Shown one piece after another: positions 2,928 through 34,812 of a stretch of DNA of 64,000 nt. The stretch is taken from assembly GCA_965219415.1 (NCBI GenBank), contig CBDCNP010000002.1, positions 800,001 to 864,000 of the forward strand, read 5' to 3'. This stretch comes from Candidatus Marinacidobacterales bacterium. Lineage in GTDB: Bacteria; Acidobacteriota; Vicinamibacteria; Marinacidobacterales; DATDRI01. A model generated the notes under the pieces. That model did not search any database. It was not told the DNA's origin and saw nothing but the letters and a program-made list of their open reading frames with translations. Every line of letters starts with the position of its first letter. Position 1 is the first letter of the stretch. A program made the position numbers and the translations under genes.

Positions 2928-3052
2928 GCAAACACCTTTAGGTATCCAAGTCACGAGAACTCCCGGCTTTTCTCTGGACTCTCCCCCTCGACGGGGAGAG
3001 TACATCAGTCAAGGGTACAAATCGAGCCGCCGATTGCGGTATGGTAAACGCC

Positions 3053-5458
3053 GTGAGCGATTTCGAAAGATTGGGGGCGTTCTACCTGGGGCGCCGTTAC
3101 GATGTGGAGGAAAGGGCTTCGAGCGACGAACCCGTCCTCTACGACGCCAAGGATCTAACAACCCACGGCCTTATCGTAGGTATGACCGGGAGCGGCAAGA
3201 CCGGTCTTTCAGTCGTGCTCCTCGAGGAAGCCGCGATCGACGGCATCCCCGCACTAATCATTGACCCCAAGGGCGACATGGGAAACCTCTTACTCAGCTT
3301 CCCGAAGCTTCAGCCTTCCGACTTCAGGCCCTGGATCGACGAGAGCGAGGCAAGCCGCAAGGGAGTCGACCCCGCTACCTACGCCGCACAGACGGCAGAG
3401 AAATGGCAGAGCGGCTTAGCCGACTGGGGACAGAATCGAAAGCGCATCAAGAAATTCCGTGGCTCGGTCGACCTCGCCATCTACACTCCAGGCAGCGAGG
3501 CGGGCCTGCCCCTTTCGATGCTCCGTTCGTTCGCCGCCCCTCCCGCCGACCAAGCGAAGGACTCCGATGCGCTTCGCGAACGCATTCTCACCGCCGTCTC
3601 GGGCCTGCTCGGCTTGCTCGGACTGACGGGCGCCAAAGCCGATCCGATCCGAAGCCGCGAGCACATTCTCCTATCGAAGCTCCTCGAAGAAGCGTGGAGC
3701 GAAGGCCGTGACATGGATATCGCGAGCCTCATTCGCGGCATCCAAGAGCCGCCGTTCGAAAAGTTGGGGGTGATGGATCTGGAATCCTTCTTCCCTTCGA
3801 AAGATCGGCGCGATCTCGCGATGCAGCTCAATAACCTTCTCGCTTCACCGGCCTTCGAGGTCTGGAGGAAGGGCGAGCCTCTCGACGTCCAGCGCTTACT
3901 CTTTACCCCGGAGGGGCGCCCACGGCATTCGATCTTTTCGATCGCCCACTTGTCCGACGCGGAGCGCATGTTTTTCGTGAGTATGTTGCTCAACGAAGTG
4001 ATCGCATGGATGAGGATGCTCCCGGGCACCGGTAGCCTTCGCGCCATCCTCTATATGGACGAGATATATGGCTACTTCCCTCCAATCGCCGTCCCACCCT
4101 CGAAAATCCCCATGCTCACCCTTCTCAAGCAAGCGCGGGCTTACGGCGTCGGTGTGCTGCTCGCAACCCAAAACCCTGTCGATCTGGACTACAAAGGGCT
4201 ATCGAACACTGGAACCTGGTTTCTTGGAAGGCTTCAGACGGAGCGTGACAAAGAGCGCGTCATCGATGGGCTCGGAGGAGCGTCGGGTGGCAAACGATTC
4301 GACCGGCGGAAGACGGAACAGCTTTTGGCGGGGCTAGGAAAGAGGGTGTTCCTCATGCACAACGTGCATGAGGACAAGCCCACGTTGTTTCAGACACGCT
4401 GGGCACTCTCCTATCTGAGAGGGCCCCTGACCAAGTCCCAGATCGAGACCTTGATGGCGCGGCGCAAGAAAGCGTCGCCGGCCGAACCCGAACCGAGAAA
4501 AGAAAGGCCCGGGAGGGTTCGGTCCGAGAGACCCATTGTCCCGCGCGAGATCCCTCAAGGGTTCCTGCCAGTCCGCGATGGCTCCGCCGAGACGAGCCGA
4601 CTCGTGTATCGGCCTGCGTTGCGTGCCACGACGCGTCTCCACTACGTCAGTGTCCGAAGCAAAGTCGACCACTGGGAGACGGTCTCGTTGCTCCTTCCGC
4701 TTTCGAGCAGCAAGTCCGATTTGAATTGGGACCATGCCGCGTTGAAAAAGGGCGAGCAACCCGCCCTTCAGAAGACCGACGCCGAGGGCGTGGGCTTCAC
4801 GAAGCTGCCTCCAGCCGCCACGCAAGCGAAGAACTACAAGAGATGGGGCACTTCCCTTCGCAATTACCTTTACCAAAACCGTCTCCTTACGCTTTGGAAG
4901 AGCGCCGAGCTTCGAACGACCTCGCGGATCGGCGAGGACCAGGCCGCCTTTCGCACCCGACTCACGCAGGCGCTCCGGGAGAAGAGAGACAAGGAGATCG
5001 AGAAGCTGCGGAAGCGCTACGCCCCCAAGCTCGCCCGGCTTCAGAAGAGGATCCAAAAAGCGGAAGAACGCGTGGAGAGAGAGAAAGGGCAATACAACGA
5101 ACGGAAGTACCAGACCGCGATTTCTTTCGGTGCGACGCTTCTAGGAGCTCTCCTTGGGCGCAGAGTGAGCGGCCGCGCCACAACGGCCGCTCGCTCGGCG
5201 GGGCGGGCGGCGCGGGAAAAAGGAGATGTTTCACGAGCCGAGAGACAAGTCGAGCAACACCACGTGGAACTGCAAGAACTCGAGGAAACCTTCGAGGAAG
5301 AGGTGGAGGCTCTTCGTGAGCTCCCCGACCCCGCGACGCTAGAGTTGGAAGAGATTCCGATTCGGCCCCGGAAATCGGATATTACCGTTAGCCGACTCGC
5401 CCTGGCTTGGACCCCTTGGGAGCGAACCGAAGACGACGTGCTCAAGCCGAGGTACTAG
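3053..5458 (+). CDS. HerA/FtsK-like P-loop ATPase (DUF87/DUF853-like) with C-terminal coiled coil
   Basis: Walker A GMTGSGKT, 'IIDPKGD', Walker B 'LYMDEIYG', 'LATQNPVDLD'; ORF 3041-5458, likely GTG start at 3053. Confidence 0.8.
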   Translation: MSDFERLGAFYLGRRYDVEERASSDEPVLYDAKDLTTHGLIVGMTGSGKTGLSVVLLEEAAIDGIPALIIDPKGDMGNLLLSFPKLQPSDFRPWIDESEASRKGVDPATYAAQTAEKWQSGLADWGQNRKRIKKFRGSVDLAIYTPGSEAGLPLSMLRSFAAPPADQAKDSDALRERILTAVSGLLGLLGLTGAKADPIRSREHILLSKLLEEAWSEGRDMDIASLIRGIQEPPFEKLGVMDLESFFPSKDRRDLAMQLNNLLASPAFEVWRKGEPLDVQRLLFTPEGRPRHSIFSIAHLSDAERMFFVSMLLNEVIAWMRMLPGTGSLRAILYMDEIYGYFPPIAVPPSKIPMLTLLKQARAYGVGVLLATQNPVDLDYKGLSNTGTWFLGRLQTERDKERVIDGLGGASGGKRFDRRKTEQLLAGLGKRVFLMHNVHEDKPTLFQTRWALSYLRGPLTKSQIETLMARRKKASPAEPEPRKERPGRVRSERPIVPREIPQGFLPVRDGSAETSRLVYRPALRATTRLHYVSVRSKVDHWETVSLLLPLSSSKSDLNWDHAALKKGEQPALQKTDAEGVGFTKLPPAATQAKNYKRWGTSLRNYLYQNRLLTLWKSAELRTTSRIGEDQAAFRTRLTQALREKRDKEIEKLRKRYAPKLARLQKRIQKAEERVEREKGQYNERKYQTAISFGATLLGALLGRRVSGRATTAARSAGRAAREKGDVSRAERQVEQHHVELQELEETFEEEVEALRELPDPATLELEEIPIRPRKSDITVSRLALAWTPWERTEDDVLKPRY

Positions 5459-11117: not shown

Positions 11118-12245
11118 ATGAATAAAGCGGCCGCCGGCCGCGCAATGATCTGTTCACACACCGACGTTGTCGGGAGTCTCCTTCGCCCTCCGGAGCTTCT
11201 TCGCGCCCGCGAGGATCTCGCCGCGGGTCGCATCAGCTCATCGAGCTTCAAAGATATAGAAAACCTCGCGGTAGATGCGGCCATCGAGCTACAAGAAGAG
11301 GCCGGACTGGAAGTCGTCACCGACGGGGAGATGCGAAGACTCTCCTTTCAAAGCCAAATGACTGAGGCGGTCGAGGGCTTCGCCGAGCACGATATCGACG
11401 CCTTCCTCTGGGGTAAGTGGCACAGCCAGGAGCTCGGTGATTGGTCCGTCGAGCGCCCGCTCATCGGTGTCGAGTCGAAGCTCGAACGCCGCCGCCACTT
11501 CTCCGCGGAGGAGTTCACGTACCTCCGGGACCGCACCAACAGCAACCCTAAGGTGACGCTTCCCAGCCCGACACTCTTTACCAACTTTTGGTCCGAGCAA
11601 TCTGCGAAGGTTTACTCGACCGTCGACGCGTTCCTAGCTGATGTCGTCAAGATTTTGCAGGAAGAGGTCGCCGAGCTCGTTCGGAGGGGAGCTACCTACA
11701 TTCAGCTCGACGCGCCGCACTATACGCAGCTCCTCGACCCAAGAACGAGGCCTTTCTATGAGGAGCGGGGCGGGGGGATAGAGAACTGGATCGATCGAGG
11801 CGTCGAGCTCGAGAACGCCGTGATAGGCGATTTTGCCGATGTCACGTTCGGTTTTCACCTTTGACGAGGCAACCAGAACAGCAGGTGGCTGTCCGAAGGC
11901 GACTACGAGCCCATTGCAAAGCGACTCTTCGGTTCCATCCAAGCGCAGCGGCTTCTTCTCGAGTATGACGATGAGCGCTCCGGCTCCTTTGAGGCCTTGA
12001 GGCACGTTCCGGACGACAAGATGGTGGTGCTCGGTCTCATCAATACCAAACTCCCGGCAATGAAAGAACAGTATGATCTCGAAGCTCGCATTCGCGCGGC
12101 CGGCGAATTCATCTCCGCCGAGCGTCTCGCTATCTCGCCTCAATGCGGATTCTCGACGTCCATCGTGGGAAATCGCATCTCGGCGGAAGACCAGAAATCC
12201 AAACTCAAGCTCCTCGTCGATACCGCGACGAGTTTTTGGGGATAA
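11118..12245 (+). CDS. Cobalamin-independent methionine synthase II-like (MetE catalytic core) protein with in-frame TGA at the Zn-ligand Cys; candidate selenoprotein, alternatively a pseudogene
   Basis: 'DVVGSLLRP', 'VVTDGEMRR', 'YIQLDAP', then FHL-TGA(11862-11864)-RGNQNSRW continuing in the same frame through 'LLLEYDDERSG' and 'ISPQCGF' to TAA 12243-12245; start is ATG 11118 or 11145. Confidence 0.8.
11878..11892 (+). promoter_or_regulatory. Putative bacterial SECIS hairpin
   Basis: ACAGC-AGGTG-GCTGT: perfect 5-bp stem with a G-containing loop, separated from the in-frame TGA by 13 nt. Confidence 0.5.
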
Positions 12246-12250
12246 GCGTG

Positions 12251-13675
12251 ATGTCGAAATACTTGCTCCTGCTGCTCGCCTTGGGCTTGATTTCCGAAGC
12301 CTCTCAGGAAACACCCAGGTTCGATCTCGTGCTCGCGGGAGGCCGGGTGATGGATCCCGAGTCAGGGCTCGATGCGATTCGTTACGTGGGTCTTCATGAT
12401 GGAAAGATCTCTGCGATTTCCGCTCGACCGCTTCAAGGCGACGAAGTCGTAGACGTTGGTGGACTGGTCGTAGCGCCCGGCTTCATCGATCTGCATGCCC
12501 ATGGCCAAAATATCGAGAGCAACCGATTCCAAGCAATGGATGGCGTCACGACGGCATTGGAGATGGAAGGTGGGGCCTTTTCGGTGTCGGAATGGTACCA
12601 AGCGCGCGAAGGCCAGTCCTTGCTCCATTGCGGCGTGACCGTCAGTCACAGCGAGGCGCGAGCGAGCGTTTTGCCTGGCCGGTCCGAAAGCGGCAAGGAC
12701 GTCTCGTATCGAACCGCGACTTCGGACGAGATCGACGAGATCGGAAACCTGATCCAACGGGGCCTGGACGAGGGAGCTCTCGGTGTGGGCTACGGAATCC
12801 AGTACACCCCGGCAGCAAGTCGCGGAGAGATCATTCGAATGTTCCGGATAGCTCAAAACCTTGGCGTGACGAACTTCGTTCACATCCGTTACGCGGGCGC
12901 AGTCGAGCCGGGAAGCAGTGTCGAAGCCGTCCAAGAGATGATCGCGAACGCCGCCTCACTGGGCGCTTCGGTCCATATCGTCCACATCGGGAGCAGTGGT
13001 CTTCGCCAAGTGCCGATCGCGCTCGACATGATCGAGGGAGCTCGAAGTCGCGGCGTCGATGTCACGACTGAGGTTTACCCTTATACCGCGGTTTCGACGG
13101 CCATCGAATCGGCCATTTTCAATGATGGCTGGCGGGAGAGGGTCGAAGCCGATTACGGAGACATCGAGTGGGTTGCGACCGGCGAGCGGCTGAACGAAGA
13201 GAGCTTCGAGCTCTACCGAAGGCGGGGTGGCATGATCATCGGCCATATCATTCCTGAGGAGATGGTCGATTTAGCGGTGGGTCATCCTTTGGTGATGATC
13301 GCAAGCGATGGTGTGCCCTTCGTTAACGGCCGAGCTCACCCGCGGGGTGCCGGCACCTTTGCGCGGGTACTAGGGCGGTACGTCAGGACCAGAAGAACAT
13401 CGACGCTCATGGAGGCTCTGCGGAAGATGAGCCTCATGCCGGCGCGGCGCCTGGAAAGTTCTGTCCCCGAGCTCGAGAACAAGGGCCGGCTTCGGGTGGG
13501 AGCCGACGCCGACCTTGCGATCTTCGACGCCGAACGCGTCCTCGATCGAGCGACGTTCGAAGAACCCGCTCAATACTCCGAGGGGTTCGTGAACGTGTTG
13601 GTGGGGGGAGTGTTCGTTGTCCGCGATTCCGAACTAGTGGACGGCGTCACGCCGGGCCAGCCGATCAAAAGGTAG
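12251..13675 (+). CDS. Secreted amidohydrolase (N-acyl-D-amino-acid deacylase-like)
   Basis: Signal peptide, 'APGFIDLHAH', 'TTEVYPYTA', 'IASDG..HPRGAGTF', 'GADADLAIFD'. Confidence 0.88.
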   Translation: MSKYLLLLLALGLISEASQETPRFDLVLAGGRVMDPESGLDAIRYVGLHDGKISAISARPLQGDEVVDVGGLVVAPGFIDLHAHGQNIESNRFQAMDGVTTALEMEGGAFSVSEWYQAREGQSLLHCGVTVSHSEARASVLPGRSESGKDVSYRTATSDEIDEIGNLIQRGLDEGALGVGYGIQYTPAASRGEIIRMFRIAQNLGVTNFVHIRYAGAVEPGSSVEAVQEMIANAASLGASVHIVHIGSSGLRQVPIALDMIEGARSRGVDVTTEVYPYTAVSTAIESAIFNDGWRERVEADYGDIEWVATGERLNEESFELYRRRGGMIIGHIIPEEMVDLAVGHPLVMIASDGVPFVNGRAHPRGAGTFARVLGRYVRTRRTSTLMEALRKMSLMPARRLESSVPELENKGRLRVGADADLAIFDAERVLDRATFEEPAQYSEGFVNVLVGGVFVVRDSELVDGVTPGQPIKR

Positions 13676-33483: not shown

Positions 33484-34812
33484 TTACGTTGCTGTTCGCT
33501 TTTCGGTGCCCTCGGGTGGATAAGAAGCGTTCGGCACATAGACGGCGGTACGGTCCAAGGTTCGTATCTTCGTTGCGCGCAAACCGATCTCCTCGACGGC
33601 GCCGATCTTGTCGCCGAAACGACAGAAATCACCGACGCGGACCGGCGCGGAGCTGAATAGAGTAATCGCGCCGATCAGGTTCTCGATCGGTCTCTGCGCG
33701 GCCAGGGCAACCGCCAGACCGCCGATTCCGAGACCTGCAATCAAGGTGGTCGCCTGGAACCCGAGGTTCTCGAACCAGAGCATTACCGCGATCAGAGCAA
33801 TCAGCAGTTTGAGAACGTTGGCCGCGGGACGCATCAGCACGGCTGCTTGGGCACGACCTCTGGCCTTCAATCGGTTCGCGGTTTGCCCGTGAAAAACGTC
33901 GACCAGTCGGATCAGGACCCAAGCCACGAGGACCGTTATTAGCGTGTGGCCCTCCATCCACGCGCGCGCCGTCACTCCCGGATGGATCACATCAATCCAG
34001 CTCCGGGCCACTATGACCGCGATGAGTAGTCGAATTGGACCCGAAACGAAGCGGCGGAGGTCGTCACTGAGACGTGTTTCGCCACGTCGAAACAGCCACC
34101 CGATAAACCAGGTCGTCACCCGCGCGACCACATATCCAATGCCGAGCAACCCGACTACCATGAGCCATTGCCACGTGTGCAGACCCAGGATCTCGAACTC
34201 GGGCATGACCTTCGAGAGCCTCTCACCGATCGCACCGTAGCCGTAGATCTCGTAGAGCTCAGGGATCTTCCCGATCGTCGCGTTGGAGATCTTCCAGATG
34301 AAAGCGCCGTCTCCCCGCGGGACGCGTTGCATGTAGATGTCGACGGGCTTGCCGTCTATATCGATTCGGGCGAGGCTGTCACGGTAGTCTGGTAGACCGT
34401 CGTCGGAGACGCCCCGAGGGTCTCTGCTCACCGTATCGGCGTCGATCCAGAGCGCGCGATCGAGCACGATCTTGAACTGCCTCACGAGCTCGGGGCCACC
34501 GATCGTAAGCACCTCCTCCGATAAGTTGCGGAGGTCAAGGTACTCGGCCGCGCGCTCGTAGTCACCTTCCCGCGCGGCTTCAGCAAAACCGAGGTAACTG
34601 CTACGGGGCGTGCCTCGATCGAACTCGTCCAGAGGACCCTGGGTTGGCTGCTGAGCCTCCGCCTGATCCTCCTCCTGCTGCAGCACATCCTTGACATTGG
34701 GCTCCTGGGCGTGCGCTGGGTTGAACCCGAGCAGCAGCACGGTCGTCGACGTTACGATCGCCGCCAGAATCGGGTAGCGACACCGGGATTGGGGATGTGA
34801 CAAAAGGCTCAT
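33484..34812 (-). pseudogene. MscS-family mechanosensitive channel, C-terminally truncated
   Basis: 'GLGIGGLAVALAAQ', 'PVRVGDFC', 'VEEIGLRATKIRT..R..VYVPN', then about 14 unrelated residues and a stop; the cytoplasmic C-terminal domain is missing. Confidence 0.75.

Follow-up and report, generated by a model that had tools for sequence, protein, structure and literature searches.

The window analyzed here is a stretch of 64,000 nucleotides from a Candidatus Marinacidobacterales bacterium (contig CBDCNP010000002.1, positions 800,001 to 864,000), and our subject is one gene on its forward strand, at positions 11118 to 12245, whose reading frame contains a single in-frame TGA. We propose that this TGA is very likely a selenocysteine (Sec) codon. 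The gene very likely represents a genuine and widespread Sec-containing family related to the catalytic core of the methionine synthase MetE, with Sec at the position of a zinc ligand, which is absent from recent catalogues. The locus contains the following features:

11118..12245, + strand: predicted coding sequence of a MetE-core selenoprotein (PF01717, 1ypx-like), 375 residues including Sec249, with the stop codon TAA at 12243-12245.
11856..11858, + strand: codon CAC of His247, the His of the H-x-U zinc motif; His in 80/80 metagenome loci and 69/69 full-length Sec forms, aligned with the His of HIC/HFC (MesD 3rpd, MetE 3ppc).
11862..11864, + strand: in-frame TGA, putative Sec249, which corresponds to Cys643, a zinc ligand in E. 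coli MetE, according to locus alignments and a profile alignment.
11877..11893, + strand: hairpin resembling a selenocysteine insertion sequence (SECIS); 5 bp in the window (11878-11882 with 11888-11892) with the loop AGGUG (11883-11887), and 6-7 bp with the loop GGU (11884-11886) in most relatives.
11961..11963, + strand: codon GAG of Glu282 (LLEYD), equivalent to E. coli MetE Glu665, downstream of the TGA; invariant in the family alignment and in 69/69 Sec forms, aligned to LE of MesD/MetE.
12144..12146, + strand: codon TGC of Cys343 (SPQCGF), equivalent to E. coli MetE Cys726, downstream of the TGA; invariant in the family alignment and in 69/69 Sec forms, aligned to CG of MesD/MetE.

Translation of the frame yields 375 sense codons followed by TAA, and the TGA, in the context F-H-L-[TGA]-R-G-N, is its sole interruption, as had been claimed in the original prediction, a note made from the DNA of the window. 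Calling of open reading frames (ORFs) with translation table 11 breaks the gene into an ORF of 248 residues and a downstream remnant, and the protein databases contain the product of the window only as a 248-residue fragment. A second ATG at 11145 (Met10) offers an alternative to the start at 11118; the alignments with orthologues begin at residues 8-10, the Cys-form orthologues (369 amino acids) begin at an aligned M-I, and the true start may be this internal codon.

The read-through product matches PF01717 (Meth_synt_2, the catalytic domain of MetE) over residues 15-350 with an E value of 1.2e-16 (61.4 bits, gathering cut-off 21), and the earlier assignment to the MetE-core family is thereby upheld. 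The closest solved structure is that of a Listeria protein of 375 residues (1ypx), which aligns end to end (E 2.7e-51 with the single sequence and 6.9e-99 by profile) and has HICRGN opposite HL[U]RGN of the window gene. The protein scores under the NCBIfam cut-offs for every methionine-synthase model, the nearest being the short models PRK06520 (236.6 bits, cut-off 313) and PRK06233 (211.7 bits, cut-off 576). The canonical two-domain MetE models (TIGR01371/PRK05222) give 43-47 bits against cut-offs of 541-930, with a match to the C-terminal half of the model only; the N-terminal folate-binding domain of canonical MetE is missing from the 375-residue protein, which falls outside canonical MetE. 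The Cys orthologues are named 'cobalamin-independent methionine synthase II family protein' in the databases. Jointly with the Sec decoding and the zinc site discussed below, we hold it to be highly probable that the product of the gene is a single full-length protein, about 366-375 residues long, and that this protein is a one-domain ('core') relative of cobalamin-independent methionine synthase.

The interrupting codon is shared by the nearest relatives. Among 41 related genomes, 9/9 orthologues with at least 64% identity contain one in-frame TGA, and the paralogues, with at most 47% identity, lack any; the close homologues are therefore not uniformly TGC/TGT forms. Scanning 401 genomes of the class gave 12 orthologues with at least 62% identity, 10 with TGA and 2 with TGC (one of the scanned genomes, G383, contributed only a Cys paralogue with 36% identity, on which no claim depends), and a scan of 401 genomes of the phylum added two TGA forms and one form without the stop. 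The total of Acidobacteriota genomes in which TGA stands at this column is 12. A single alignment of 39 loci has TGA there in 10 and TGC or TGT in 29, and Cys occupies the column in 13 further non-TGA homologues. Orthologues with 58-66% identity in metagenome-assembled genomes (MAGs) labelled Alphaproteobacteria, Burkholderiales, Chloroflexi, Acidimicrobiia and others all have TGT or TGC. A Cys-form orthologue in a Vicinamibacterales MAG (positions 3001-4102 of locus L068; HLCRGNQNNRWL) is interrupted by a frameshift close to residue 202 of the query.

Metagenomes were scanned with the degenerate pattern H-x-TGA-R-G-N-Q-x-x-R-W, which matched at least 119 stretches; 80 loci were taken from these, 72 of them with the 3' end of the gene on the contig. 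All 80 are homologous to the window gene, with the TGA at the same column and a His two codons before it. In 71 of the 72 3'-complete loci the frame remains open for 115-133 codons past the TGA, and in 59 for exactly 126, as in the window. Together with the 12 genome loci, these form a set of 92 Sec-form loci with 87 distinct hairpin sequences and 69 distinct full-length forms, which provides the independent homologues with TGA at the Cys column that the original prediction had called for. In this set, the position of the TGA and the sequence of the hairpin are conserved to a degree that greatly exceeds chance. In contigs of two public sequencing runs (X2 and X6), both from other studies, 11862-11864 is covered and no other letter is listed; X1, which may be the source sample, covers it too. 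Evidence of a TGC in reads, one of the outcomes named as damaging, did not appear. The Logan contigs of X2 and X6 break or restart within 11862-11891, a stretch that is nearly identical across strains and species, probably because the assembly graphs branch at the conserved SECIS region.

Both sides of the TGA evolve under constraint. The 69 full-length Sec forms share 54-100% pairwise identity (median 65%), and the median NG86 ratio of nonsynonymous to synonymous substitution rates (dN/dS) amounts to 0.131 for the part before the TGA and 0.172 for the part after it. Of the 2346 pairs, 216 could be used for this calculation; saturation removed 1807, and the remainder lay outside the dS bounds. 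The window gene and its closest relative (L016 versus L017) give about 0.15 upstream and about 0.14 downstream. The 3' half is hence not neutral and is under purifying selection. These data show that the UGA is conserved, that it is translated through under purifying selection and that it alternates with Cys.

What is the role of the residue at this position? According to the consulted sections of Price et al. 2021 (PMC7857596), the zinc ligands of E. coli MetE are His641, Cys643, Glu665 and Cys726, and its homocysteine-binding residues are Ser433, Glu484 and Asp599. We aligned the family profile with MesD 3rpd (E 1e-32) and Candida MetE 3ppc (E 1.1e-27), in which the columns H-l-C-R-G-n correspond to HIC/HFC, L-E-Y-d to LE and s-p-q-C-G-F to NCG/DCG. 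This alignment agrees with the claim that the TGA occupies the Cys position of an H-x-C zinc motif, and the LLEYD and SPQCGF motifs noted at the outset are both found downstream of the TGA. His247, Glu282 and Cys343, as well as Ser20, Glu71 and Asp198, the equivalents of the homocysteine-binding Ser, Glu and Asp, are invariant in 69/69 full-length Sec forms. The predicted metal site of this PF01717 protein therefore comprises His247, Glu282 and Cys343, with Sec249 at the fourth position. From the homology to zinc-bound MetE and MesD we infer that Sec249 is a zinc ligand, and the conserved binding residues suggest a thiol alkyltransferase with homocysteine as its substrate.

The arrangement of these ligands bears on whether the TGA might simply be a stop, belonging to a pseudogene, arising from a sequencing error or separating two polypeptides of 248 and about 82-126 residues. 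Because Glu282 and Cys343, half of the four ligands, lie downstream of the TGA, a product truncated there could not form the site. The four residues that immediately follow the TGA, R-G-N-Q, are invariant, and the first in-frame start codon after them, TTG at 11997, falls beyond Glu282. A real stop would agree with the gene callers, which end the product at 248 amino acids, with the protein collection, which contains only that fragment, and with the further stops found in the L119 and G018 copies described below. However, it leaves unexplained why the same TGA recurs in 12 genomes and 80 metagenome loci with the downstream frame intact in nearly all that are 3' complete, why dN/dS beyond it is 0.17 and why contigs of other runs show the same letters. 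We regard this explanation as scarcely credible.

The genome of the host (8.05 Mb, 3 contigs) encodes the machinery for Sec insertion, the presence of which had been left to be checked: selA (569.7 bits in a profile search), selB (375.8 bits, full length, model positions 1-578 of 581), selD (328.3 bits) and a tRNA-Sec (69.7 bits; called by ARAGORN as tRNA-SeC with anticodon TCA). The selD gene has its own in-frame TGA in the context T-C-A-G-[TGA]-A-S-K-L (G000:C3:3889655-3890587, locus L011), which predicts that it is itself a selenoprotein gene; a hairpin, CCCAG-GUU-CUGGG, lies about 30 nt downstream of its TGA. Matches to selA and tRNA-Sec exceed the cut-off in 11/11 other genomes with the Sec form. 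TGA is the ordinary stop codon of 6 of the 17 long ORFs in the window, and hence the codon is not reassigned genome-wide. The caveat in the original prediction, that other genes in the window are also interrupted by nonsense codons, did not hold up in a quick scan: three other TGA-bridged frames, at 33890, 17285 and 63007, look like non-coding shadow frames and were dropped because of their Arg/Ser/Pro-rich translations. An Acidobacteriota genome with a Cys-form orthologue, G465, has two equal-scoring matches to selA and two to tRNA-Sec, which could reflect a duplicated region or an assembly duplication.

A candidate signal for Sec insertion begins 13 nt past the TGA, where ACAGC (11878-11882), AGGTG (11883-11887) and GCTGT (11888-11892) form a hairpin at the coordinates given previously. 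Its GCAGGU core, already likened to that of the E. coli fdhF SECIS, occupies offsets 19-24 from the U of UGA, compared with 18-23 in the E. coli K-12 record, and the GGU lies at offsets 22-24 here and at 21-23 in fdhF. Across the 87 distinct Sec-form sequences, a 7-pair helix with the loop GGU (alignment columns 25-31 with 35-41) has 89.8% of its cells paired, compared with 23.6-79.3% when the helix is slid by 1-3 columns. The covariation score of 0.126 (0.104 in shuffles) is reached by 0/500 shuffles. The hairpin codons +5 to +9 are also restricted in their synonymous choice: the codon entropy is 0.46 for GGC, 0.34 for AGC, 0.77 for CGG and 0.90 for CTG, compared with 1.8-2.4 for Gly, Arg and Leu codons elsewhere in the gene, and the third positions of these codons were not set by the metagenome retrieval pattern. 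The middle base of the loop, which is the third base of an Arg codon, is G or U in 87/87 Sec forms and C or A in 7/12 Cys orthologues. This synonymous-site constraint specific to Sec forms is stronger evidence for the hairpin than the covariation. The covariation that the original prediction proposed to look for gives a score above all shuffles but is modest, with few compensatory changes.

We read the hairpin as a putative functional, minimal SECIS. An Rfam scan of 11700-12100 gave two chance-level matches (E >3) and no SECIS family, and whether Rfam models bacterial SECIS elements in coding regions was not established. Residue 259 (codon 11892-11894), which contributes the 3' base of the hairpin, is mostly Ser (TCC) in Sec forms and Val (GTC) in Cys forms, a difference that RNA structure may drive. 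An alignment comparison for residues that separate Sec from Cys forms revealed nothing convincing near the active site.

Several observations weigh against the interpretation of the gene as encoding a zinc selenoenzyme. Taken alone, the hairpin of the window has a minimum free energy of -6.4 kcal/mol (z -0.07), and 84/200 shuffles are at least as stable. Compensatory change is scarce, with two-sided changes in 2/7 pairs and 5 cells, and RNAalifold keeps only 3 consensus pairs in the alignment of the 87 sequences, which is why the explicit 7-pair helix was scored instead. The Cys orthologues are still paired in 76% of the helix cells because the conserved S-R-W-L peptide imposes much of the stem. 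The pattern used on the metagenomes fixes the TGA and several flanking codons, so what these loci demonstrate is the retention of the downstream frame and not the frequency of Sec relative to Cys. One metagenome contig (L119, TGA near 159-161) stops 24 codons after the TGA, the only early stop among the 72, and is probably a degraded or misassembled copy; a genome copy (L023, G018:C1:5539862-5540965) has, 25 codons before the conserved TGA, a TAG in the same frame, for which a pseudogene, a misassembly or another cause could be responsible. Public runs labelled as RNA contain at most 0.04 of the sampled window words. Ligation of zinc by selenium is argued from homology, and the literature searched named no substrate for any member of this subfamily.

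Some of these points would suit a UGA that is read through without selenium, by near-cognate insertion of Trp, Cys or Arg or by another programmed mechanism: the inserted residue cannot be read from the sequence, the covariation is modest and the stability of the window hairpin is unremarkable. Such a process would not account for the Cys at this column in 29/29 aligned non-TGA homologues and 13 further ones, for the presence of selA and tRNA-Sec in all 12 TGA-form genomes, or for a loop base that is G or U in 87/87 sequences and a GGU position that matches the SelB-dependent fdhF element. We therefore consider selenium-free read-through very improbable. The observation of the original prediction is confirmed and its interpretation is supported, and each outcome it had listed as refuting (a genome lacking the Sec machinery, only Cys codons among close homologues, TGC in the sequencing data, a neutral 3' half), where looked for, came out in its favor.

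The explanation that we favor, and in which as a whole we have high confidence, combines Sec decoding, direction by the hairpin and Sec at the zinc site. UGA 11862-11864 would be decoded as Sec by SelA, SelB, SelD and tRNA-Sec, and decoding would be directed by the hairpin in the coding region, with its GGU loop 19 nt after the UGA. Sec would replace the Cys of a His-x-Cys motif that, with Glu282 and Cys343, forms the catalytic zinc site, and because the replaced residue belongs to this motif, the selenolate would be a first-shell zinc ligand. The zinc would then activate a thiol for methyl transfer; this substrate would most likely be homocysteine or one of its close analogues. The selective advantage might lie in a more nucleophilic or more labile zinc site, or in resistance to the oxidative S-thiolation by which the zinc-ligand Cys of MetE is inactivated. 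The relevant sections of PMC4360819 report that oxidative stress leads to S-thiolation of the zinc-ligand cysteines of MetE and also of the paralogue YxjG (S-bacillithiolation in the case of YxjG); that a selenolate ligand alters the sensitivity to such modification is our speculation.

The same S-thiolation of the MetE zinc-ligand Cys and of YxjG (PMC4360819, sections consulted) could also point to a different use of selenium, in which Sec is inserted and acts as the reactive group instead of a passive zinc ligand, either through an Se-methyl ping-pong intermediate (in transfer or demethylation) or through a selenenylsulfide switch with Cys343. Most known selenoproteins employ Sec as a reactive nucleophile, and Sec-containing forms of methylated-DNA-protein-cysteine methyltransferase and arsenite methyltransferase are listed in the main text of PMC13188914. 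However, the equivalents of the other three zinc ligands and of the three homocysteine-binding residues are invariant in 69/69 Sec forms, and a single orthologue clade, at 58-68% identity, contains Sec and Cys forms intermixed. Each of these findings favors a catalytic mechanism that has stayed the same, and we consider a reactive Sec of this kind improbable, if less so than the other alternatives.

With Sec as a zinc ligand, a broader hypothesis follows that we favor with more reserve: a natural zinc-selenolate catalytic center would operate in a widespread, mainly soil-bacterial, folate-independent methionine-synthase-like enzyme in which Sec and Cys have been exchanged repeatedly, and the selenolate would tune alkyl transfer at a zinc-thiolate site or guard against S-thiolation. 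The exchange would require little. A change of TGY to TGA together with a synonymous change of CGC to CGG would suffice to turn a Cys enzyme into a Sec enzyme, and the Cys orthologues, which have TGC or TGT where the window gene has TGA, mostly use CGC for the Arg codon of the hairpin loop. A coding sequence (S-R-W-L) that is pre-adapted, with a near-SECIS hairpin at the right distance, may explain the interleaving of Sec and Cys forms. We constructed a FastTree phylogeny with 110 rows and a quick IQ-TREE phylogeny with 63 rows; parsimony on these trees counts about 12 changes between Sec and Cys, and branches with good support require at least 3 of them. Constraining the Sec rows to a single group lowers the log-likelihood by 71.6 units (p-AU 0.051), with groups that were named after the first tree had been seen. 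Repeated switching between Sec and Cys is thus suggested by these trees, not shown. Two near-identical Cys-form genes, from a bin of the archaeon Candidatus Nitrosopolaris (L060) and from a Chloroflexi bin (L061), are sisters in the tree, with terminal branch lengths of 0.02 and 0.08, which suggests a misbinned contig or a recent transfer.

How does the predicted enzyme compare with characterized systems? The Cys orthologues (58-68% identical) and Listeria 1ypx have the same length and the same single PF01717 domain, and for this subfamily the literature searched describes no biochemical function. With MetE and the folate-independent core methionine synthases MesA-MesD, as presented in the consulted sections of PMC7857596, the window protein has in common the catalytic TIM barrel, the His-x-Cys...Glu...Cys motif and the equivalents of the homocysteine-binding Ser, Glu and Asp. 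As in MesA-MesD, no N-terminal folate-binding domain is present. The protein is only a remote relative of both MetE and MesD, and it is not itself a MesD: the match to MesD 3rpd gives 32.9 bits (E 4.1e-7) with the single sequence and E 1e-32 by profile, and a Pfam scan of the 10 neighboring ORFs found no MesX (DUF1852) or corrinoid-protein gene next to it. MetE and MesD have Cys as the first Cys ligand, whereas the window protein would have Sec. The fdhF SECIS of E. coli (NC_000913.3) is likewise a hairpin in the coding region just 3' of the UGA with GGU in its apical loop, but it consists of a long bulged helix with a GGUC loop, compared with the 5 bp of the window or the 6-7 bp of its relatives and a GGU or AGGUG loop; recognition by SelB is here predicted from the sequence. 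An exchange of Sec and Cys at a metal- or metalloid-binding position, in an enzyme that otherwise stays the same, as proposed here, also occurs in [NiFeSe] hydrogenase (consulted part of PMC13582414) and in the arsenite methyltransferase selenoprotein (main text of PMC13188914), the latter being a methyl-transfer enzyme as well. Unlike in these proteins, the metal would here be a redox-inert catalytic zinc in a thiol-alkylating site. In the literature searched we found no natural zinc-selenolate enzyme, which is an absence there and not a proof.

The genomic surroundings give no clue to the function of the enzyme, neither in the window nor at the 92 Sec loci. In the window, a MacB/FtsX permease gene lies upstream and a gene for a secreted amidohydrolase (12251-13675) begins 5 nt after the stop codon; a Pfam scan found no methionine, corrinoid or selenium genes among the 10 neighboring ORFs. 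The commonest neighbor of the Sec loci is a convergent gene for a TauE/SafE-family (PF01925) membrane protein just past the stop codon, present at 30 loci (for example, L114:2410-3309) and not in the window, and ORFs for Isochorismatase and PEMT/ICMT-like proteins occur near fewer loci. The genome contains a canonical MetH (1696 bits), no full-length MetE and three short PF01717 genes including that of the window. Because MetH is present, the selenoenzyme need not be the housekeeping methionine synthase.

A 2026 review counts more than 110 prokaryotic selenoprotein families, predominantly bacterial (PMC13188914), and in its main text the terms PF01717, methionine synthase, MetE and homocysteine do not occur. 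A Sec-containing MetE-like protein was likewise not found in the literature searched, including the consulted portions of PMC1794560, PMC13188914, PMC13326102 (BSepDB) and PMC12013277 (deep-Sep), the supplementary tables of which may hold one. We rate the proteins described here as a new selenoprotein family.

Sec is known mostly from redox enzymes, and a zinc-thiolate site for alkyl transfer is common to MetE, MetH and the BHMT-type and MtaA-type enzymes. If our interpretation is correct, Sec would occur in a non-redox site of this kind, and the Sec and Cys forms would provide a natural pair for the study of ligand tuning. The annotation of these genes, which gene callers now truncate at 248 residues, would be corrected. 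The pre-formed SECIS would be a concrete case of a Cys codon turning into a Sec codon with few changes. Moreover, the family would link selenium to methionine or methyl-group metabolism in the Acidobacteriota (Vicinamibacteria), which are abundant and poorly studied.

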